31,430 nucleotides of DNA from Candidatus Diapherotrites archaeon CG11_big_fil_rev_8_21_14_0_20_37_9 (lineage in GTDB: Archaea > Iainarchaeota > Iainarchaeia > Iainarchaeales > Iainarchaeaceae), in NCBI GenBank assembly GCA_002762975.1, contig PCWY01000022.1, forward strand, positions 1-31,430, given 5' to 3'. Of the stretch, positions 7,389-23,934 are shown one piece after another (the first letter of the stretch is position 1; every line of letters begins with the position of its first letter). The notes under the pieces were generated by a model, which worked only from the letters and a program-made list of their open reading frames with translations, searched no databases and had not been told where the DNA came from. The position numbers and the translations under genes were made by a program.

Positions 7389-7457
7389 ATGAATTTTAAT
7401 GCAAGAATAAGGAAATTAGGCATTTTGCTTGTCCTTGTACTTGTATTGCTAGCTTAA
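7389..7457 (+). CDS. Putative Leu/Val/Ile-sensing leader peptide MNFNARIRKLGILLVLVLVLLA
   Basis: 22 codons with 7 Leu, 3 Val and 2 Ile; 11 of the last 13 are branched-chain. Lies directly upstream of leuA-ilvB-ilvN-ilvC-leuB. Confidence 0.8.
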   Translation: MNFNARIRKLGILLVLVLVLLA

Positions 7458-7530
7458 GCACCCGCAAAAATTTTCGACTTCTGCGGGGTGCGATTCCAAA
7501 AACACAGAAGTCTTTATAGTAAAGAAGGAG
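7458..7530 (+). promoter_or_regulatory. Attenuator-like alternative hairpins of the leu/ilv leader
   Basis: gcacccgca (7458-7466) with tgcggggtgc (7482-7491) excludes gacttctg (7476-7483) with cagaagtc (7505-7512), which is followed by ttta and then aaggag (7525-7530). Confidence 0.65.
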
Positions 7531-7558
7531 AAATGAAAAAAAAAGAAAAGTGAATTTA

Positions 7559-11321: not shown

Positions 11322-12305
11322 GTGAAATTTTTGAAGGACAAAGATGCTGATGTTAATTCAGTAAAGGGAAAAACTATTGCAGTTATTGGTTATGGTGCAC
11401 AGGGTGCTGCTCAGGCAATGTGTATGAAAGATTCTGGTCTTAACGTAATAATTGGATTGAGGCAGGGCAGCGAGAAATGGAAAACTGCAGAACAGTATGG
11501 TTTTGAGGTTCTTGAAACAGCAAAAGCTGCTGAGAAAGCCGATATAATCCATGTTCTTATGCCTGATGAAAAGCAGGCTGATGCATTTGAAAATGACATT
11601 AAACCTCATTTAACAAAAGGAAAAACTCTTTCATTTTCACATGGATTTAACATTTGTTACAAGTTCATTGTTCCTCCAACAGACATTGATGTTATAATGG
11701 TTGCGCCGAAAGCCCCTGGCACAGAAGAAAGAAAACAGTTTTTGCAGGGCTTTGGTGTTCCTGGTCTTATTTCAATAAGGCAGGATGTTTCAGGCAATGC
11801 AAAAAAAACCGCGCTTGCAATGGCAAAAGCATGTGGTTTCACAAGGGCAGGAGTAATTGAATGCACTTTTGAACAGGAAACATTTGAGGATCTTTTCGGA
11901 GAACAGGCTGTTCTTTGTGGAGGGCTTTCTGAATTGATTACTACAGGCTTTGAAACTCTTGTTGAGGCGGGTTATCCTGCTGAAATGGCTTATTTTGAAT
12001 GCCTTCATGAAACAAAACTCATTGTTGACCTTATTTATGAAGGCGGAATGACTCATATGTGGGATGTTGTTTCAAATACTGCTGAATACGGTGGCAGGAC
12101 AAGAGGAAAGGCAATTATAGATCCTGAAGTAAAGCAGAGAATGAAGAAGCTTCTTGCTGATGTTGAATCAGGGAAATTTGCCAATGAGTGGATTGCCGAG
12201 TATAAAAGCGGATTGAAGAATTTCAAAAAACTCAGGGAAGAGCAGAATAACCATGAGATTGAAATTGTTGGCAAAGAGATTAGGGATCTTTTCAAAAAAG
12301 AGTGA
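11322..12305 (+). CDS. ilvC: Ketol-acid reductoisomerase
   Basis: [48 protein letters not shown] and [17 protein letters not shown] precedes the GTG start. Confidence 0.96.
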
Positions 12306-13447
12306 TTTCATTGGTTAAATATAAAATTGCGCTGATGCCCGGAGACGGCATCGGTCCCGAAATAATTTCTGAGGGCAGAAAAGTAATTGATGCTGTTTCA
12401 GAGCTCAATGGATTTGAAATTGATTGGGTTGAGTATAATAATGGCGCCGAGAAATATCTCAAAACTGGTGAATTAATTACTGAAGAAACCCTTGCGGAAA
12501 TTAAGGGTTCATGTAAAGCAATTTATCTTGGCGCGCTTGGAGATCCAAGGTGCAAGCCAGGTATTTTAGAAAAAGGAATTCTTCTCAAAACAAGGTTTTA
12601 TTTTGACCAGTATGTTAACTTAAGGCCAATTAAATTACTTGATGGTGTTGATTGTCCGCTTAAGGGTAAGGGTCCAAAGGATATTGATTTTACTGTTGTA
12701 CGCGAAAACACTGAGGACTTTTATGTTGGCATAGGTAATCGTGTTGGTAAAGGAAATTCAAAGCAGGGGCTTGAAGTTCTTCGTGAATTGTATAAAGTTA
12801 AATTTGGTCTTGATATTGAAAGCACGGATGAAATTGCTTATCAGATTGGTGTGATGAGCAAATCTGGTGCTGATCGCGTGATAAAATATGGGTTTGAACT
12901 TGCAAAAAAAGAAAATGTTGAAACAGTTTATTTTGTTGACAAGGCAAATGTGCTTTCCGACATTTATGGTTTTTGGCGTGAAAGGGTTGAGTTGCAGGCA
13001 AAGAATTATCCTGGCATAAAACCTGAGTTCATGTTTGTTGACGCAATTACCATGTGGTTTGTGAAAAATCCTGAATGGTTTAAGGTTGTCACAACTCCGA
13101 ACATGTTTGGTGATATTATAACTGATTTAGGCGCAATGATTCAGGGTGGTTTAGGTTTGGCGCCTGGCGGAAACATTAATCCTGATGGAATTTCAATGTT
13201 CGAACCAATTCATGGTTCTGCTCCAAAGTATAAGGGTCTTGATACTGCAAATCCACTTGCAACAATATGGGCAGGTGCATTAATGCTTGAGGAAATAGGT
13301 GAACCAGAATCAAAGGAGCTTATTGTGAATGCAATTCAGGAAATTTTGAAAGAAGGGAAAGTAAAAACAAAAGACCTTGGTGGCACGCATAAATGCAGTG
13401 AAATGGGTTCTGCTGTTGCTGAAAAGTGCAAAGAGCTTTTTCAGTAG
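12302..13447 (+). CDS. leuB: 3-isopropylmalate dehydrogenase (isocitrate/isopropylmalate dehydrogenase family)
   Basis: [33 protein letters not shown] and FEPIHGSAP, plus operon context. Confidence 0.85.
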
Positions 13448-13509: not shown

Positions 13510-14385
13510 ATGTTATTTGATCCCTTAATTATTGCTTTTATTGTAGCTTTTATTGGATTTATTTTTCAGAAAAAATTTGGTTTTGATCAAAAATCACTGG
13601 CAAATATCCTTATTTACATTACTGGTCCGGCGCTTACATTTGCAGCAATTTATTCAAAAGAAATTATTCTTCATGAATTTTTTGTAATAGGGGTTTCGGC
13701 ATTTGCTGTGATGTTTGCATCAGGTATTTTTGCATATTTGCTTTATCGTGTACTTGGTTACACTGGAACGGGAATGATTCTTCCTGCAATGTTCATGAAT
13801 TCTGCCTATCTTGGTTTTCCTGTTGCGCTTTTTGCTTTTGGAGAAGAAGGTTTACAATATGCAATAATTTATGATTTATTTGAAACACTTTTGATGTTTT
13901 CGCTTGGGGTTTTTCTTGTTCAAAGTGCATTGAAAAAAAAGCGGGAAAAACTTGCAGGAATTTTAAAATTACCTTTGATTTATGCCATTTCATTTGCAAT
14001 TATTTTTAATTTTGCACAAATTCAGATTCCTTCAGTTCTTGTTGAATCATTGAACCTATTGGGTCTTGCTACAATACCTCTTGCTTTACTTTCACTTGGG
14101 GGAAGACTTGCCCAACTTAAAATTGGTTCATTAAAAATACCGGTTGCTGCGGTTTTTTCAAGGCTTGCAATAGGCGCGGTAATCGGACTTGCTTTTGTAT
14201 ATTTATTTAATCTCTCTGGAATTCTTGCTTCAATTGTTCTTTTGCTTTCGGTGATGCCTCCTGCGGTTAACAGTTATGTGCTTAATGAAAAGTTTTCAAA
14301 TGAAGCTGATAATGCAGCAACTGCTGTTTTAATTGGAACTATTTTGAGTGTGATTCCTATAGGCATTATTCTTTTTTTCCATTAA
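13510..14385 (+). CDS. AEC (auxin efflux carrier / malate permease-like) family transporter
   Basis: About 10 hydrophobic segments; NSAYLGFPV and SVMPPAVNSY motifs. Confidence 0.85.
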   Translation: MLFDPLIIAFIVAFIGFIFQKKFGFDQKSLANILIYITGPALTFAAIYSKEIILHEFFVIGVSAFAVMFASGIFAYLLYRVLGYTGTGMILPAMFMNSAYLGFPVALFAFGEEGLQYAIIYDLFETLLMFSLGVFLVQSALKKKREKLAGILKLPLIYAISFAIIFNFAQIQIPSVLVESLNLLGLATIPLALLSLGGRLAQLKIGSLKIPVAAVFSRLAIGAVIGLAFVYLFNLSGILASIVLLLSVMPPAVNSYVLNEKFSNEADNAATAVLIGTILSVIPIGIILFFH

Positions 14386-14439
14386 TTTAAATTTTTTGTG
14401 TAAACAAAAAGAATATAATGTACAAAATGCATTAGTTGA

Positions 14440-14841
14440 ATGTTCATTATGTCTGCACAACAAACAAATACTTCAAATAATTCAGCTGATGTAAATTCTG
14501 ATTCAAATTTAATTGCGGCGCTTGCTTACCTGCCTGTTCTTCAGCCGTTTATTCCAATAGTTACTTTGCTTTTGAGGCCTAATGATAAATTTGTAAAGTT
14601 TCATTCAATTCAGGCGCTTGGACTTTTTCTTGCAATATTTATTGGCGGGTTGATTTTCAGCATAATTGCAATCATATTTGCTGTGGCAACCCTTGGTCTT
14701 GGCATATTTTTGCTTTTGCCGATATTTGCAGTATGCGGGCTTGCTGAACTCATTTTAAGCATTATTTTGATGATTAAGGCATACCAAGGGGAAAAGTACA
14801 AGCTTCCTGTAATTGGCGAATGGGCTGAAACTTTCAAGTAA
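14440..14841 (+). CDS. DUF4870-like small membrane protein
   Basis: AALAYL, FVKFHSIQAL and KAYQGEKYKLPVIGEWAE pattern. Alternative start 14449. Confidence 0.8.
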   Translation: MFIMSAQQTNTSNNSADVNSDSNLIAALAYLPVLQPFIPIVTLLLRPNDKFVKFHSIQALGLFLAIFIGGLIFSIIAIIFAVATLGLGIFLLLPIFAVCGLAELILSIILMIKAYQGEKYKLPVIGEWAETFK

Positions 14842-14856
14842 ATTTAACAAAAACCT

Positions 14857-14864
14857 TTTATATT
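14857..14864 (+). promoter_or_regulatory. Putative TATA box of the pheA leader transcript
   Basis: TTTTATAT preceded by A-rich BRE-like caaaaacc; starts 29 nt before ATG 14886. Confidence 0.6.
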
Positions 14865-14885
14865 TCCTGCAACCCATATATTATA

Positions 14886-14978
14886 ATGTTATACGCTACA
14901 ATTGCAAAGAATGATTCAGCTGTTTCAAAAGTAGCTTCGGCATTTGCTTTTTATTTCTATTTCTTTTTCTTTAAATAA
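14886..14978 (+). CDS. Putative Phe/Tyr-sensing leader peptide MLYATIAKNDSAVSKVASAFAFYFYFFFFK
   Basis: 30 codons ending FAFYFYFFFFK (7 Phe and 3 Tyr in total), 102 nt upstream of pheA. Confidence 0.8.
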   Translation: MLYATIAKNDSAVSKVASAFAFYFYFFFFK

Positions 14979-14979
14979 C

Positions 14980-15029
14980 ACCCTTTCTGACCTTTGGCAA
15001 GAAGGATTGGGTTTCCAAAAAGTTTTTTT
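14980..15029 (+). promoter_or_regulatory. Attenuator-like hairpins and T7 tract after the Phe/Tyr leader
   Basis: Imperfect stem accc/gggt plus tttct/agaag (14980-15012) competes with ttgg-gttt-ccaa (15007-15018). T7 at 15023-15029. Confidence 0.5.
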
Positions 15030-15080
15030 AAGTTAAATTAAATTAGGGTTGAAAATAAATTTTGAAAATTGGTGAGGTTT

Positions 15081-16148
15081 ATGAGTTTGGAGAAAACAAG
15101 AAAAAAAATTGATGAAGTTGATGATGAAATAGTTGATTTATTGAATAAGCGCCTTGAACTCGCTATTGATGTTGGCAAAGAAAAAAAAGAACACAGCGAA
15201 ATTGTTTATGATCCTGTAAGGGAAGAACAGATAATTGAAAAGCTTGCAAAAAAAAGCAAGGGTTTTCCAAAAGAGGGCATTGAGTCAGTATTCAGAGAAA
15301 TTTTTAGTGTTTCAAGAAAGGCACAGTCCCCTATAAAGATTGCTTACCTTGGGCCTGAAACAACATTCACGCATTCAGCTGCATTAAAACAATTTGGTAC
15401 GCAGGCGGAGTATAAATCAAAAGACTCTATTAATGATGTTTTTCTTTCCGTTGAAAAAGGCGAAACCGATTTTGGTGTTGTTCCTGTAGAAAATAGCATG
15501 GAAGGTTCAGTCAATAGAACCTACGATAGGCTCATTACATCGGAACTTAATATTGTTGGTGAAATCTCATTGAAAGTAAACCATAATCTTCTTTCTAAAT
15601 ACAGGTTAAGAGATATCACAAAGATCTACAGTCATCCTATGGCGATTGCTCAATGCAGGGAATGGATTTCGAAGAATTTGCCAAAAGCGGAAATATTTGA
15701 AGTGAGTTCAACTGCGGCAAGTGTTGAAGCAGGCACTTTGTATTTAAATTCTGCTGGCATTGGTTCTGAGCTTGCTGCACAAAAATTTGGTTTGCAGGTT
15801 GTTGAAAAAAATATTCAGGATTTAAGCTCCAATTATACAAGATTCCTTGTGCTTGGCAGGGTGATGCCTAAAAAATCTAGTAAAAGCAAAACAAGTATTG
15901 TTTTTTCGGCAAAGCATGAACCAGGTTCTTTGTTTAATGCACTTGAGCCTCTTAAAAAGCATATGATTAACATGACTAAAATAGAGTCAAGACCGACAAG
16001 GATGAGAAACTGGGAGTATGTGTTCTTTGTTGATTTCCAGGGGTATGTTGAGGATGAAAATGTGGTAAAAGCACTTGGGGAAATGAAGAAAAATACTGCC
16101 CTACTGAAAATACTCGGGTCTTATCCTGAAAAAGCGAGGTTTGAATAA
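15081..16148 (+). CDS. pheA: Bifunctional chorismate mutase / prephenate dehydratase with ACT domain
   Basis: N-terminal R.KIDEVD..IV.LLNKR (AroQ), LGPETTFT, VPVENSMEGSV, NYTRFLVL, INMTKIESRP and LGSY. GGTGAGG RBS precedes ATG 15081. Confidence 0.95.
   Translation: MSLEKTRKKIDEVDDEIVDLLNKRLELAIDVGKEKKEHSEIVYDPVREEQIIEKLAKKSKGFPKEGIESVFREIFSVSRKAQSPIKIAYLGPETTFTHSAALKQFGTQAEYKSKDSINDVFLSVEKGETDFGVVPVENSMEGSVNRTYDRLITSELNIVGEISLKVNHNLLSKYRLRDITKIYSHPMAIAQCREWISKNLPKAEIFEVSSTAASVEAGTLYLNSAGIGSELAAQKFGLQVVEKNIQDLSSNYTRFLVLGRVMPKKSSKSKTSIVFSAKHEPGSLFNALEPLKKHMINMTKIESRPTRMRNWEYVFFVDFQGYVEDENVVKALGEMKKNTALLKILGSYPEKARFE
16128..16148 (+). repeat. Direct repeat copy 1 (pheA 3' end)
   Basis: gaaaaagcgaggtttgaataa, identical to 17138-17158. 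Confidence 0.95.
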
Positions 16149-16260: not shown

Positions 16261-17091
16261 ATGGTTATGGAAGAAACAAATGCATTGGCAATATTTCAAG
16301 GCAAGAAAATAAGGAGAACCATGCATGATAGCGAATGGTGGTTTTCAATCGAGGATATTGTAAAAGCTCTAACTGATTCTCAGGATCCAAAACAATATAT
16401 CAATAAATTGAGAAAAAGGGATGAACCCCTTTCAAAAGGGTGGGTACAATTTGTACATACCCTTCCTGTTTTAACTTCTGGGGGAAAGCAAAAAGTGAAT
16501 TGTTCTAATACTAAAGGTATTTTTAGAATAATCCAGTCAATTCCCTCTCCAAAAGCCGAACCATTCAAACTCTGGCTTGCTAAGGTAGGGTATGAAAGAG
16601 TAGAGGAAATTCAAAATCCTGAACTTGCTCAAAAAAGAATGAAAGAATTGTACAAACAAAAAGGTTATTCTGATGACTGGGTTGAAAAAAGAGTAAGAGG
16701 AATTGCAATTAGGGATGAACTAACTGATGAGTGGAAAAAAAGAGATGTAAAAACAAATAAAGAATATGCTATTCTTACTGCTAAAATTTCAAAAGAAACG
16801 TTCGGCATGACTCCTGGTGAATACAAGAAATTCAAGGGTTTGAAGAACGAAAACCTAAGGGATTATATGGATGATTTAGAACTCATTTTTTCAATGTTTG
16901 GAGAAAGAGTTACAACCGAAATAACCAAAAATCAAGACACCAAAGGGTTTGATGAATGTAAGGGTGCGGCAAAAAAAGGCGGAAAAGTAGCAGGAAATGC
17001 AAGAAAAGATGCTGAAAAACAGATTGGAAAACCAATTTCAAAAAAAGATAATTATAAGCAATTAACGGAAAAAAAGAAACTTAAAAGGTAA
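16261..17091 (+). CDS. Bro-N domain protein (phage antirepressor-like DNA-binding protein)
   Basis: F.GKKIRR....EWWFSI.DIV..LTDS.DP.QY, and GIFRIIQSIPSPKAEPFKLWLA.VG.ER.EEI.NPEL. Confidence 0.85.
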   Translation: MVMEETNALAIFQGKKIRRTMHDSEWWFSIEDIVKALTDSQDPKQYINKLRKRDEPLSKGWVQFVHTLPVLTSGGKQKVNCSNTKGIFRIIQSIPSPKAEPFKLWLAKVGYERVEEIQNPELAQKRMKELYKQKGYSDDWVEKRVRGIAIRDELTDEWKKRDVKTNKEYAILTAKISKETFGMTPGEYKKFKGLKNENLRDYMDDLELIFSMFGERVTTEITKNQDTKGFDECKGAAKKGGKVAGNARKDAEKQIGKPISKKDNYKQLTEKKKLKR

Positions 17092-17160: not shown

Positions 17161-17970
17161 ATGGCTGAAGTTAAGGAACTGGAAAAAATCGCAAAATCCC
17201 TGAGAAAGGACATTGTTGAAATGACCAATATTAGCCAATCGGGTCATCCGACTACCTCAATGAGCTGCATAGACATACTCACGGCACTTTACTTTTCAGA
17301 ATTGAAACACAACCCAAAAAACCCAAAAGACCCTAATAGAGATAGGTTCATTTTGAGCAAGGGGCATGGCGCTCCTGCAATTTATGTGTGCCTTGCGCAT
17401 GCAGGTTATTTTCCGAAAGAGGAATTAAAGCATTTAAGAGAAATCAATCATTTATTGCAAGGTCATCCAAGTACGAGCATTCCAGGTATAGAGATTGCCA
17501 CCGGCTCCTTGGGCATGGGTCTTAGCGTTGGCAATGGCATTGCATGGGCTGCAAAGCTTGACAAAAAAGATTATCACACTTATGTGATGTTCGGCGATGG
17601 TGAATTGCATGAGGGCCAATGTTGGGAATCCATAATGGCTACTCCTGATTTTAAACTTGATAATGTAACATTAATTGTTGATAGAAATAGATTACAGAAT
17701 GATGGTTGGATTGATGCTGAAAAACAGCTCGAGCCACTTGACAAAAAATTCGAGGCATTCGGCTGGGAAGTACTTACAATAAACGGTCATGACATGAAAG
17801 AAATCCTTGATGCGTTAAGGCATGCATGGAAATCAAAAAATCCTGTATGTGTTATTGCAAATACAATCAAGGGCAAGGGCGTAAAAATAATTGAAGATGA
17901 TCCTGATATGCATGGAAAACCTTTGAGCAAGGAACAATACGCTGAAGCAATAAAGGAGTTGGCAGAATGA
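17161..17970 (+). CDS. Transketolase, N-terminal (ThDP-binding) subunit
   Basis: SGHPTTSMS, DRFILSKGH, LQGHP, TGSLGMGLS, GDGELHEGQCWE...DRNRLQ and TIKGKG. Confidence 0.95.
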   Translation: MAEVKELEKIAKSLRKDIVEMTNISQSGHPTTSMSCIDILTALYFSELKHNPKNPKDPNRDRFILSKGHGAPAIYVCLAHAGYFPKEELKHLREINHLLQGHPSTSIPGIEIATGSLGMGLSVGNGIAWAAKLDKKDYHTYVMFGDGELHEGQCWESIMATPDFKLDNVTLIVDRNRLQNDGWIDAEKQLEPLDKKFEAFGWEVLTINGHDMKEILDALRHAWKSKNPVCVIANTIKGKGVKIIEDDPDMHGKPLSKEQYAEAIKELAE

Positions 17971-18920
17971 ATAAGTACAAAGTCGGTGAAAAGGCCGCAA
18001 GTAGAGATTCTTACGGACAGGCGCTTATTGAGCTTGGAGAAAAACATGAGGAAATTATTGTAATGGATGCGGATCTTGCAAAGAGTTCCAAGGCGTATGA
18101 TTTTGCAAAAGTTTTTCCAAACAGATTCAAGTATGCTGGGATTTCAGAACAAGATATGGTTTCAATGGCTGCGGGTCTTGCAACTACAGGAAAAGTTCCT
18201 TTTATTAGTTCGTTTGCCTGCTTTTTGCCGACGCGCGGTTATGACCAGATAAGAGTTAGCGTCTGTTATTCAAACACAAATGTGAAAATAACTGGTTCAC
18301 ATGGCGGTTTAATGACAGGAAAGGACGGTCCTACAGGTCAGGGTATTACTGATTTGGCTCTGATGAGAAACCTGCCTAATATGCATGTTCTTGTTCCTGC
18401 TGATGTTCAAGAAACCATTGCGTGTACAAGGGCAATGTATGAAAATAAAGGCCCTTTTTACATGAGGACTGCGAGGGAAAAAACAGTTATTCTTAATGAA
18501 AATGTTCCTGAGGTAAAATTAGGAACTTCTTTTTTGTTAAGGGATGAAAGCGATGCAGTAATCATTGCTGTTGGTGCAATGGTTCCTGAGGCGGTAAAGG
18601 CTGCTGATAGCCTGAAGCAAAAGGGTATATGTGTGAGTGTCCTGAACTGTGTTTCACTCAAGCCAATTGATGAAAAAGCAGTTCAAAAAGTTTCAAAAAA
18701 CGGGCTTGTTGTTTCTGCTGAAGATGGTGTTGTCGAGGCTCTGGGTGCGAGTGTTGCGGAAATAATTGCAGAAAAAAGAATTGATGCAAAACTCATTCGG
18801 GTTGGATTGAATAACAAATTTGCAGAATCAGGTGATGCATTTGATTTGCTTGCAAAATACAAAATGGATGCAAATGCAATTGAAAAAAATATACTTAATG
18901 GTTTAAAGGAGATGAAATAA
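17967..18920 (+). CDS. Transketolase, C-terminal (pyrimidine-binding and C-terminal) subunit
   Basis: ADLAKS, GISEQDMV..AAGLA, DQIR, G.DGPTGQ, D..LMRNLPNM.V..PAD and GPFYMR. Confidence 0.93.
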   Translation: MNKYKVGEKAASRDSYGQALIELGEKHEEIIVMDADLAKSSKAYDFAKVFPNRFKYAGISEQDMVSMAAGLATTGKVPFISSFACFLPTRGYDQIRVSVCYSNTNVKITGSHGGLMTGKDGPTGQGITDLALMRNLPNMHVLVPADVQETIACTRAMYENKGPFYMRTAREKTVILNENVPEVKLGTSFLLRDESDAVIIAVGAMVPEAVKAADSLKQKGICVSVLNCVSLKPIDEKAVQKVSKNGLVVSAEDGVVEALGASVAEIIAEKRIDAKLIRVGLNNKFAESGDAFDLLAKYKMDANAIEKNILNGLKEMK

Positions 18921-19936
18921 TGTTGATGATATTAAAGATGGGTGTAACCCAACAGCAGATTGACAAGCTTGTTGATTTTATTGAAAAACACAAGCTTAAG
19001 GCGCATGTTTCTATTGGAGAAACAAAAAGTATTGTTGGGATTATTGGCGATGAGTCAAAGATTTCCAAAGAGCATCTTGAAAGTTTTGATTTTGTTGAAA
19101 AGGTAATGCCTGTGCAGAAACCTTATAGGCGAGCTTCAAGGGAAATTCATCCTGAGAATACAGTAATTGATGTAAAGGGCGTTAAAATCGGCGGAAATGA
19201 AATTACAATGATAGCAGGTCCTTGTAGTATTGAAAGCGAGGAACAGGCTTTTGAGATTGCAACAGCTTTGAAAAAAATGGGTGTAAAGGTTTACAGGGGA
19301 TCTGCTTACAAGCCGAGAACATCGCCTTATGCATTCCAGGGTCTTGGACTTAAGGCACTTAAAATTTTGAGAAAAATCGGTGACGAATTAGGCCTTGTTG
19401 TTGAAACAGAATTAATGGATATAAGAAATATTGAAGTTGTTGCAAAACATGTGGATATGATTAGGATTGGTGCAAGGAACACGCAAAACTTTGATTTGCT
19501 AAAAGAGGTTGGAAAAGTTGACAAACCGATAATTTTGAAAAATGGGGTTTCAACCACAATGGAAGAATGGTTGTTTGCGGCAGAGTATATTCTTAATGAG
19601 GGCAACAATAATGTGATTCTTTGTGAAAGAGGAATAAGGACTTATGAGCCTGCAACAAGAAACACTCTGAATTTAAGCGTGATTCCTATTCTAAAGGAGC
19701 TTACTCATCTGCCAGTAATTGTAGATCCTTGCCATGCGGCAGGAAAGCGTGGGCCTATACCTGCATTAAGTAAAGCTTCTGTTGCTGTAGGCGCAGATGG
19801 TTTGCTTATAGAGGTGCATAATAATCCTCAAGTTGCTTTGTCAGATGCGGCTCAGCAATTGACTCCAAAGGATTTTGAAATACTTTATAACGACCTGAAA
19901 AGAGTTGCTAAATCTGTTGATAGAACGTTGGTGTAA
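18920..19936 (+). CDS. aroF: DAHP synthase, type I-beta with N-terminal regulatory domain
   Basis: [52 protein letters not shown] and EVHNNP..ALSD..Q. Confidence 0.95.
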
Positions 19937-21971: not shown

Positions 21972-22029
21972 TTTTTGTAAAGGGCAATTATAACTAACAT
22001 TTAAATACTTTAGGTAATGGTATTATTGT

Positions 22030-22077
22030 ATGGCTAGAAGGGATTTACTTTGGCTCAAATCAATTTGTTTTGAGTAG
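22030..22077 (+). other. Candidate leaderless uORF MARRDLLWLKSICFE (one Trp codon)
   Basis: ATG lies 30 nt after the start of TTTAAATA (22000-22007), upstream of tRNA-Trp and trpE. Confidence 0.3.
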
Positions 22078-22165
22078 TCCTAGGAATGCCATAGCAACTA
22101 TTTTTATTAAATTCTACTCTATTTACGCATGGCACTGGCTTTAAGCCACTGCATTGTAACTGATT

Positions 22166-22238
22166 GGGGATATAGCATAACCTGGTAGTGTACCTGGCTC
22201 CAGACCAGAGGATGGGGGTTCAAATCCCTCTGTCCCCA
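22166..22238 (+). tRNA. tRNA-Trp (anticodon CCA), intron-less, CCA tail not encoded
   Basis: Acceptor ggggata/tgtcccc plus discriminator A, D-arm gcat/gtgt, anticodon arm ctgg-ct-CCA-ga-ccag (CCA at 22200-22202), T-arm ggggg-ttcaaat-ccctc. Confidence 0.93.
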
Positions 22239-22240
22239 CA

Positions 22241-22275
22241 TCTTTTTATTTCTCTTAAAAAGAGAAAGGAAAAAG
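22241..22275 (+). promoter_or_regulatory. T-rich tract after the tRNA, able to pair into a long hairpin
   Basis: cttttt (22242-22247) with aaaaag (22270-22275), and tttctctt (22249-22256) with aagagaaa (22260-22267). Confidence 0.5.
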
Positions 22276-22326
22276 CGGTATCAAAAAGAAAGAGAATCAA
22301 GCATAATTTGTGCTTATAATGAAAAA

Positions 22327-23934
22327 GTGAGTTTATTGGAAGGGCTAAAAGAGCTGAAAAAAGCAAAGAAAGGAAGCATTGTTCCATTATACGAGGAAAT
22401 GTCCACTGAAATGAATGCATTTGATTATTTTAGTAGACTCTCAAATCACGGTGCTTCAAAAAATTCTATTTTACTTGAAAGCGCGGACATAATTACAAAG
22501 TATGGTGAAAAAAGCATTGGTTCTGTTGATCCATGCATTAAAGTAATTGGGCGAAGCGAGAAGTTTGAAATAATTTCTCTTAATTCTTTGGGTGACGAAT
22601 TCCTGAAAAATATTGTTCAGAATTTGCAGTTTTGTTCAGACTTAAAAATTGAAAAGAAAAAAATTTCAGGTACAATAAAAAAATCAAGTGCAATTACCTC
22701 TGAAAATGAAAGGCTTAACTCAAAAACACAGGCAGATATTCTAAGGGCAATTGCATTCAAACTTGTTCCTGTTTACAAACCTTTTCCTGTTTATGGCGGT
22801 CTATTTGGGTGTATTGCGTATGATTTTATTGATCAGTTTGAAACCCTTCCTGAAAACAAAAAAGATGTGCTTAACGAACCTGATTATGAAATGAATTTTT
22901 ATAATAATATTTTTATTTTAGACCATAAAAAGGAAAAAATTACTTTTGTTGCAAACGCCCTTATTTTTGATGAACAGGATAAAGATAAAGAATTAAAACG
23001 CTGCCAGAAAATAATTGATTCTTATAAAAAGGTGTTTTCAAAATCGCCAAATGGAAAAAAAACTAATTATTCAAAAAGAGTTGTTTCAACAGATACAACC
23101 AAAGAAGAATTTGAAGAAACCGTTTCTGAGCTTAAAAAAAATGTTTTTTTAGGGGATGTGTTTCAGGTTGTTCCTTCAAGAACCATAACTTCGACTTTTA
23201 GTTGTGAACCTCTTGACATCTATAATTCATTGAGAAATCTTAATCCAAGTCCTTACATGTTTTTCTTTTCAAATGAAGCAGGAATACTTTTAGGAAGCAG
23301 TCCGGAAACATTCATTAAAGTTTCAGGAGAAAAGAGAAAAAAAATTGAAATCAGACCTATCGCAGGAACCAAACCAAGAGGTTTTGTAAATGGGTTACTT
23401 GATGCAGATCTTGATTCAAGGTTTGAGGCGGAACTGAAAACAGATCAGAAAGAAATTGCCGAGCATACGATGCTAATTGATCTTGCGAGAAATGATGTTG
23501 CAAGAGTTTCAGAAGCAGGAAGCAGGCATTGTGATATGCCATACCGTATAGAAAAATATTCACATGTTCAGCATATTGTAAGCACGGTTTCAGGAACACT
23601 TAAAGCGAATATGGATGCATTACATGCTTACCTTGCATGTATGAACATGGGTACACTTACCGGTGCACCAAAAGTTGAGGCAATGAAACTTATAAGAGTA
23701 CATGAAAAAACACGGCGTGGTTTTTATGGTGGGAGTATTGGTTATCTTACTCCTTCAGGTGAATTTGATTCTGCAATAGTAATCAGAAGCATGACCCTTA
23801 AAGGAAACACCGCTTATATTCGGACAGGCGCGGGAATTGTTTATGATTCTGTTCCTGAGAAGGAATTTTTTGAGACTGAAAAAAAGGCACGGGCGTGTCT
23901 TGAGGCAATTGAAGTTGCGGAGGCAAAAAAATGA
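22327..23934 (+). CDS. trpE: Anthranilate synthase component I
   Basis: LLESAD, NPSPYMF, SSPE, PIAGTKPRG, EHTMLIDLARND, MNMGTLTGAPK and AGAGIVYDS.P..E..ET..K. Confidence 0.95.
   Translation: MSLLEGLKELKKAKKGSIVPLYEEMSTEMNAFDYFSRLSNHGASKNSILLESADIITKYGEKSIGSVDPCIKVIGRSEKFEIISLNSLGDEFLKNIVQNLQFCSDLKIEKKKISGTIKKSSAITSENERLNSKTQADILRAIAFKLVPVYKPFPVYGGLFGCIAYDFIDQFETLPENKKDVLNEPDYEMNFYNNIFILDHKKEKITFVANALIFDEQDKDKELKRCQKIIDSYKKVFSKSPNGKKTNYSKRVVSTDTTKEEFEETVSELKKNVFLGDVFQVVPSRTITSTFSCEPLDIYNSLRNLNPSPYMFFFSNEAGILLGSSPETFIKVSGEKRKKIEIRPIAGTKPRGFVNGLLDADLDSRFEAELKTDQKEIAEHTMLIDLARNDVARVSEAGSRHCDMPYRIEKYSHVQHIVSTVSGTLKANMDALHAYLACMNMGTLTGAPKVEAMKLIRVHEKTRRGFYGGSIGYLTPSGEFDSAIVIRSMTLKGNTAYIRTGAGIVYDSVPEKEFFETEKKARACLEAIEVAEAKK

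Follow-up and report, generated by a model that had tools for sequence, protein, structure and literature searches.

The coupling of transcription and translation finds its textbook application in leader-peptide attenuation, which, to our knowledge, has been established only in bacteria. The enterobacterial pheL-pheA attenuator (represented in Rfam as Phe_leader) resembles the locus described here in that an ORF enriched in end-product codons lies directly before pheA, its stop codon adjoins an RNA hairpin, and charged tRNA is presumed to be sensed via the speed of the ribosome. Other bacterial leader peptides, i.e., tnaC and mgtL, control Rho-dependent termination. The leaderless poly-Cys short ORFs of mycobacteria (Ms5788A) have been described as translational attenuators, in which the codon run, once the ribosome has left it, pairs with RNA further downstream while a stalled ribosome prevents this pairing (bioRxiv 10.1101/834739). 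A full-text literature search returned no archaeal case of leader-peptide attenuation, a 2021 review of archaeal transcription-translation coupling leaves attenuation and leader peptides unmentioned (PMC8116511), and leader-peptide control in archaea seems to be unpublished.

The window, i.e., the whole stretch of 31,430 nucleotides of archaeal DNA that was analyzed, holds a short ORF directly before pheA, for which sequence and comparison with relatives establish the reading frame, a cognate-codon bias, a leaderless geometry, an adjoining hairpin (H1) and the order of the genes that follow. This ORF probably corresponds, in an archaeon, to the leader peptides of bacteria, i.e., to a ribosome-based sensor that would control an aromatic operon, and the sensing of charged tRNA-Phe, tRNA-Tyr and tRNA-Trp that such a role would entail is strongly supported by the comparative data.

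The leader ORF and its genomic setting

The host genome (1.13 Mb, 37% G+C) encodes a TBP with two repeats as well as aCPSF1/FttA (839 bits, above the curated cut-off), which together identify it as archaeal. Pfam assignments place ilvC and a leuB-like gene (11322-13447), a gene for a Mem_trans protein (13510-14385) and a DUF4870 gene (14440-14841) before pheA (15081-16148, + strand), the product of which combines chorismate mutase, prephenate dehydratase and ACT domains (Pfam CM_2, PDT and ACT, respectively). The Shine-Dalgarno (SD) sequence GGTGAGG and the ATG of pheA span positions 15071-15083 of the + strand. On the downstream side, pheA is followed by a Bro-N gene (16261-17091), a split transketolase (N-terminal part at 17161-17970, C-terminal part at 17967-18920, + strand) and a DAHP synthase gene (18920-19936, + strand), all likewise assigned via Pfam.

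The leader ORF occupies positions 14886-14978 of the + strand, comprises 30 codons and is leaderless by spacing; its translation reads MLYATIAKNDSAVSKVASAFAFYFYFFFFK up to the stop codon. Codons 20-29, which form the putative regulatory tail (14943-14972, + strand), read TTT GCT TTT TAT TTC TAT TTC TTT TTC TTT, i.e., seven Phe, two Tyr and one Ala, so that Phe or Tyr is specified by nine of these ten codons and by nine of the eleven final sense codons of the ORF; the corresponding RNA is U-rich and contains two U5 runs. A TATA box, TTTATATT, is located at 14857-14864 (+ strand) with its first T 29 nt before the ATG, and is itself preceded by an A-rich, BRE-like stretch at 14848-14853 (+ strand). 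Across the genome, the distance of TATA-like motifs from the first ATG of long ORFs peaks sharply at 28-31 nt upstream (67 of 809 ORFs), which indicates that leaderless mRNAs are a normal gene start in this organism. The leader ORF thus has the standard leaderless geometry of its genome, and this spacing would place the 5' end of the transcript at the start of the ORF. The initial annotation had described a Phe/Tyr-rich, TATA-positioned leader ORF heading pheA, and the translation and the TATA spacing bear this out.

An ORF of this kind could also be a chance product devoid of function that happens to span the T-rich DUF4870 terminator and the pheA promoter region, since stretches rich in T encode Phe, Leu or Ser and T-runs are common after genes. 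Aromatic composition alone is weak evidence against such an origin: a similar content, i.e., at least eight aromatic residues among the last 14, is found in nine of the 11,309 small ATG-ORFs of the genome. Among the 203 small ORFs that are preceded by a TATA box, the aromatic filter is passed by the leader ORF only, and a comparable bias is displayed by just one other member of this set, namely the Leu/Val/Ile ORF at 7389-7457 described below. It is conservation in relatives that raises the leader above chance, as it is kept in operons of nine families with different upstream neighbours and has its own TATA box at the leaderless distance, while related leaders contain TGG codons, which are not T-rich, and the aromatic content in frame is two- to three-fold above that of the other frames. 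We therefore consider a chance origin highly improbable. The differing upstream neighbours and the ORF's own TATA box likewise uphold the initial view that the stretch is not simply the DUF4870 terminator.

Two further possibilities were set aside. On contig C25, an ORF that is led by a TATA box and biased towards Thr and Ile has no cognate genes downstream and was regarded as noise, and inspection by eye for programmed frameshifting or readthrough at the UUU-rich end before the hairpin identified no canonical in-frame slippery heptamer and no continuing ORF.

Conservation of the leader and its operons across the order

The family to which the host belongs is represented by 23 genomes, of which 15 possess a pheA of the same chorismate mutase-prephenate dehydratase (CM-PDT) type at 60% identity or more. 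An upstream ORF of 28-33 codons is present in 13 of these 15, with tails such as SAFYFYFWFFE, AIAFYFYFWFFK, IGFYFYFYFFSW, AIYFNSFFYFFW, GSYFYYFFW and AQYFCVYFFW, each running up to the stop codon, and a profile HMM built from the family leaders returned exactly one match per genome in the 13 family genomes (E-values of 1e-7 to 1e-14). Inspection of the regions that precede CM-PDT pheA genes elsewhere in the order, which comprises 196 genomes, yielded further leaders in families f4, f6, f19, f23, f25, f26, f29 and f31. Their tails, again read up to the stop codon, include NFFQYFWYFFQ, FFYFNYSYFF, AAAWFFNFFFFY, RQWFASFFYFFK, YFAYWYFYFFE, SSIPYFFFYW, KAFYYYFAYFFQ and LVGFYYFW, and additional tails, e.g., FYFYFWFFK, YFNSFFYFFW and SYFAYWYFV, likewise differ in sequence and are alike in composition. 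In total, a leader ORF of 28-44 codons stands at the operon head in 29 of the 33 assessable CM-PDT pheA operons, distributed over nine families of a single order; it is lacking in four genomes with the same pheA (G005, G011, G037 and G038).

The aromatic bias is specific to the reading frame. Within the last 12 codons of 30 leaders, aromatic residues account for 227 of 360 positions in frame (63%), as compared to 73 of 360 (20%) and 103 of 360 (29%) in the other two frames. The aromatic run reaches the last or penultimate codon in all copies, TTT/TTC and TAT/TAC vary synonymously among leaders, and the N-terminal halves have diverged freely without loss of length or frame. In 29 of the 30 related leaders, the TATA box begins, counted from its first T, 27-34 nt ahead of the ATG, and no frame-breaking indel was encountered among the leaders; the frame-preserving conservation in pheA relatives that the initial annotation had proposed as a check is seen in the 29 operons mentioned above. 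Phe and Tyr codons are present in all 30 leaders and Trp codons in 27, the leader of the window being one of the three that lack Trp, with TGG replaced by TTT. The original description as a Phe/Tyr leader accordingly stands with regard to the Phe/Tyr bias and falls short with regard to its restriction to these two residues, and the element would be predicted to sense all three aromatic amino acids.

Conservation of the frame at a constant length, together with the hydrophobic nature of the tail, may equally be expected of a functional small aromatic protein, e.g., one that is membrane-associated or a partner of PheA, and that is co-expressed with the operon without acting as a sensor. Here, it is composition alone that is conserved, and not the positions of individual residues, with an N-terminal half that is nearly free to vary; the ORF matches no protein family and is found nowhere else in these genomes, and a hairpin always follows directly past its stop codon.

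The window furthermore contains a parallel case. Before leuA, at the head of the leu/ilv operon, a leaderless ORF rich in Leu, Val and Ile codons (MNFNARIRKLGILLVLVLVLLA) is located at 7389-7457, with a hairpin directly 3' of its stop codon (7458-7491) and an alternative 8-bp pairing (7476-7483 with 7505-7512). At 27 of the 30 leuA loci compared across the order, this leader and both of its pairings are conserved upstream of the gene, many copies with a TATA box near -28; the hairpin right past the stop takes the form GCACYCC...GGRGUGC, and the alternative pairing joins CGRCUUCUG to CAGAAGUCG. Although the Leu/Val/Ile ORF may be read as a transmembrane helix, which would suit a small protein, the codon bias matches the pathway end products twice, in the aromatic and in the branched-chain operons, and two different operons that are each headed by a leader rich in their cognate codons are difficult to reconcile with small proteins or with chance. 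A small-protein function for the aromatic ORF is consequently quite unlikely.

Two additional small ORFs of the window may be mentioned at this point. A six-codon mini-ORF encoding MKKKEK (7533-7553) is preceded by a strong SD sequence (AAGGAG), and its TGA overlaps an in-frame GTG (7550) that lies shortly upstream of the leuA ATG (7559); it may represent a translational coupling device. In the region 22000-22330, a TATA-led ORF of 15 codons with one Trp (MARRDLLWLKSICFE, then stop) is followed by tRNA-Trp (22166-22239) and subsequently by trpE. A Trp-rich leader before trpE was considered and dismissed, this ORF, which precedes the tRNA-Trp gene, being the only one there.

The leader stands at the head of the aromatic operon whether that operon opens with pheA or has either a transaldolase-like gene or two ORFs ahead of pheA, which indicates that it tracks the operon head and not pheA itself; it also draws attention to unannotated first cistrons overlooked by gene callers. 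The two transketolase genes (tktN-tktC) directly follow pheA in 16 of 16 relatives checked, from which the Bro-N gene that separates pheA from the transketolase in the window appears to be an insertion. On this comparison, the order pheA-transketolase N-transketolase C is ancestral, and the gene order that underlies the ancestral pheA-transketolase-aroF transcript postulated in the initial annotation is thereby supported.

A TATA-like sequence, TTAAATTAAATTA, at 15033-15045 (+ strand), 43-48 nt before the pheA ATG, is a possible separate pheA promoter, and pheA in this window might thus have a promoter of its own. Of 28 related leader-to-gene spacers, 20 are purine-rich and devoid of any TATA-like motif, and a downstream promoter is unlikely in these 20 relatives. 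An SD-like sequence precedes the next gene in all 28 leaders examined, as expected of internal cistrons; spacers devoid of TATA and SD-led downstream genes together argue for a single transcript, in which the downstream genes would depend on the leader's promoter. The spacer between leader and pheA in one genome (G021, L007:148-340) is 190 nt long and 68% purine, and contains approximately four repeated GGNNAAAUG units, which are SD-plus-AUG-like, as well as a possible second small ORF.

The closest homologues of the CM-PDT pheA outside the order are bacterial, i.e., those of Desulfobacterales and of marine metagenome contigs (44-48% identity; L027-L040 and L118-L193), which suggests an old horizontal transfer. 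Nothing comparable to the archaeal leader is present at these bacterial loci, and no convincing leader was apparent upstream of the Desulfobacterales homologues (~45-48% identity).

RNA structure past the stop codon and candidate read-outs

Hairpin H1 (ACCCUUUCU...AGAAGGAUUGGGU; 14980-15012, + strand) begins 1 nt 3' of the stop codon of the leader ORF. A G+C hairpin begins 0-8 nt past the stop in 30 of 30 copies, which places it inside a ribosome footprint of the stop codon, with energies of -6 to -21 kcal/mol, and the summed energy of the 13 family copies amounts to -124.7 kcal/mol as compared to -44.7 kcal/mol for shuffled sequences. The stem sequences differ between clades, and among the six closest sequences seven of the eleven base pairs show compensatory changes. 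Given the usual size of the ribosome footprint, a ribosome whose A site is occupied by the stop codon would cover the 5' arm of H1, and one stalled at least four codons upstream would not.

In the window, H1 is followed by an A-run (CCAAAAAG) and then by T7 (15023-15029), a combination (15015-15029, + strand) that represents a candidate archaeal termination signal, archaeal termination being expected at oligo-U. This succession of an A-run and a run of U4-U9 has been kept in genera g1, g2 and g4, which include the window, while at one locus (L004) the pair is replaced by the complementary ACAAAU and AUUUGU. The U-tract after H1 is confined to these three genera, and approximately 40% of leaders have no run of U5 or longer after the stop. 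Many leaders of family f25, as well as the Leu leaders, carry a U-run inside the H1 loop. Runs of at least five T are enriched three- to four-fold within the first 10 nt past ORF stops in this genome, and the aromatic codons, read as RNA, amount to a succession of U-tracts. An A-rich tract past H1 recurs in most families, and UUCCAAAAA is found a few bases past H1 in both the Phe leader (15015-15022) and the Leu leader (7495-7504).

The U-tract is absent from genus g5, from genomes G003 and G014 and from family f26, where the strand of aromatic codons is base-paired along its entire length to a purine-rich partner situated just past H1. The resulting bipartite hairpins reach -24 to -34 kcal/mol (seven family copies and family f26), and in g5, G003, G014 and f26 the leaders' own purine partner strands outperform shuffled strands (0-10 of 200) and most cross-pairings; the same duplex test was not significant for genera g1, g2 and g4. 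Such copy-specific pairing, together with the H1 loop UGACCYUUGSCAAG, which is conserved at the sequence level in genera g1 and g2, would also be compatible with the RNA itself being the active element, i.e., with H1 and neighbouring helices binding a protein, a tRNA or a metabolite and with the frame as a by-product of a U-rich pairing strand. Pairing alone, however, leaves unexplained why the ATG is fixed 30 nt past the TATA box and the frame is intact, why TGG and TAT codons are conserved and third positions change synonymously, and why the stop codon lies just before H1. Nor is there a matching Rfam family: a cmscan of positions 14000-16000 at E-values up to 10 returned no leader or riboswitch family, Phe_leader included. 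We consider an RNA element of this type unlikely.

With regard to the preferred reading, that of a ribosome-based sensor, transcription would start at or beside the ATG at 14886 and generate a leaderless mRNA, on which the first ribosome would translate the 30-codon ORF and its ten final, mostly Phe/Tyr codons (Phe/Tyr/Trp in relatives). If charged aromatic tRNAs are scarce, we infer that the ribosome would park on the aromatic codons; if they are plentiful, it would reach the stop codon, melt H1 and leave, and the U-rich codons would then lie exposed. Where the ribosome stands would thus set how the initial ~150 nt of the mRNA fold and how far they are accessible, which in turn would set expression of the pheA-transketolase-DAHP synthase genes, with higher levels under starvation. 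This direction of control is proposed by analogy, because the simple geometry of coupling predicts less, and not more, read-through upon stalling.

Several conventional read-outs were considered, none of which accounted for all clades. A classical 3:4 terminator/antiterminator arrangement would require a hairpin in competition with H1, and no conserved one was found in the Phe leaders; nascent-RNA folding did not favour a terminator stem formed by the codon run and the A-run in the window's clade. The fold of the whole leader region is no more stable than that of shuffled sequences (z = +1.4), and a scan with a sigma-70 promoter model, which is not applicable to archaea, and a hairpin-terminator model identified no + strand terminator in the leader. 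Modelled stalling raised the mean accessibility of the SD sequence from 0.47 to 0.53 across 28 loci, with increases at 10, decreases at three and no change at 15; SD unmasking by a stalled ribosome is therefore inconsistent, opening being predicted at 10 of 28 loci.

For the window's clade, a sensor might act via premature termination, as opposed to read-through, either at the U-tract at 15023-15029 or by aCPSF1/FttA on exposed U-tracts, to which we assign somewhat less than an even chance. Termination at T7 or by aCPSF1 is favoured for the window because T-runs mark gene ends in this genome, aCPSF1 is encoded by it, and aCPSF1 binds U-tracts specifically (PMC8716108). For the sister clades in which the codon run is paired with a purine strand just past H1, a read-out at the level of translation or mRNA stability is about as likely. 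A more far-reaching proposal is true archaeal ribosome-mediated attenuation, in which Phe codons would double as U-tract termination signals, hidden from RNA polymerase and aCPSF1/FttA by the stalled ribosome or by H1 behind it, such that read-through would occur only with uncharged aromatic tRNAs; extended to the entire order and to its Leu/Val/Ile leaders, this proposal appears rather doubtful.

Relation to described leader systems

Archaeal termination uses U-tracts together with aCPSF1/FttA, and the present locus departs from pheL-pheA in several respects: its host is an archaeon, its promoter is of the TATA/BRE type, and its mRNA is, by spacing, leaderless, with no SD sequence for the leader. 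Furthermore, the sensory codons are a mixture of Phe, Tyr and Trp with no match in Rfam, and neither a conserved terminator/antiterminator pair nor a terminator composed of a hairpin plus U-run was found here, as distinct from pheL-pheA.

Short F/Y-rich ORFs, e.g., MERNYRNYFFSFYFYAGA and MSSVRPQGFFYFSYFFYGQP, also occur upstream of prephenate dehydratase genes of Bacteroidota (Saprospiraceae and others; L047-L104). These ORFs are a bacterial analogue of the archaeal leader, with convergent composition.

If the proposed role is correct, leaderless cognate-codon leaders would act on aromatic and branched-chain operons throughout an order of small-genome archaea. The regulatory role of coupling in archaea would then become directly testable, as would signalling from a stalled ribosome to a eukaryote-like RNA polymerase and aCPSF1/FttA.

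The mycobacterial Cys ORFs share with the present leaders the position of a leaderless, putatively sensory ORF as the first cistron of a biosynthetic operon, as well as a codon run that pairs downstream, which here is the aromatic run paired with the purine strand in several clades. The mycobacterial system is bacterial and its duplex covers the SD sequence of the next gene, whereas the paired strand in the archaeal leaders is usually 20-150 nt away from the SD sequence and the modelled SD opening varies from locus to locus. A translational read-out such as that of the mycobacterial ORFs may also apply, above all in those clades that possess a long codon-strand helix. As for tnaC and mgtL, the likeness would lie in a ribosome that, depending on its position, might mask or uncover the signal through which a termination factor enters, with the difference that here the Phe codons are themselves the U-tracts and the putative factor is not Rho but the archaeal nuclease aCPSF1/FttA.
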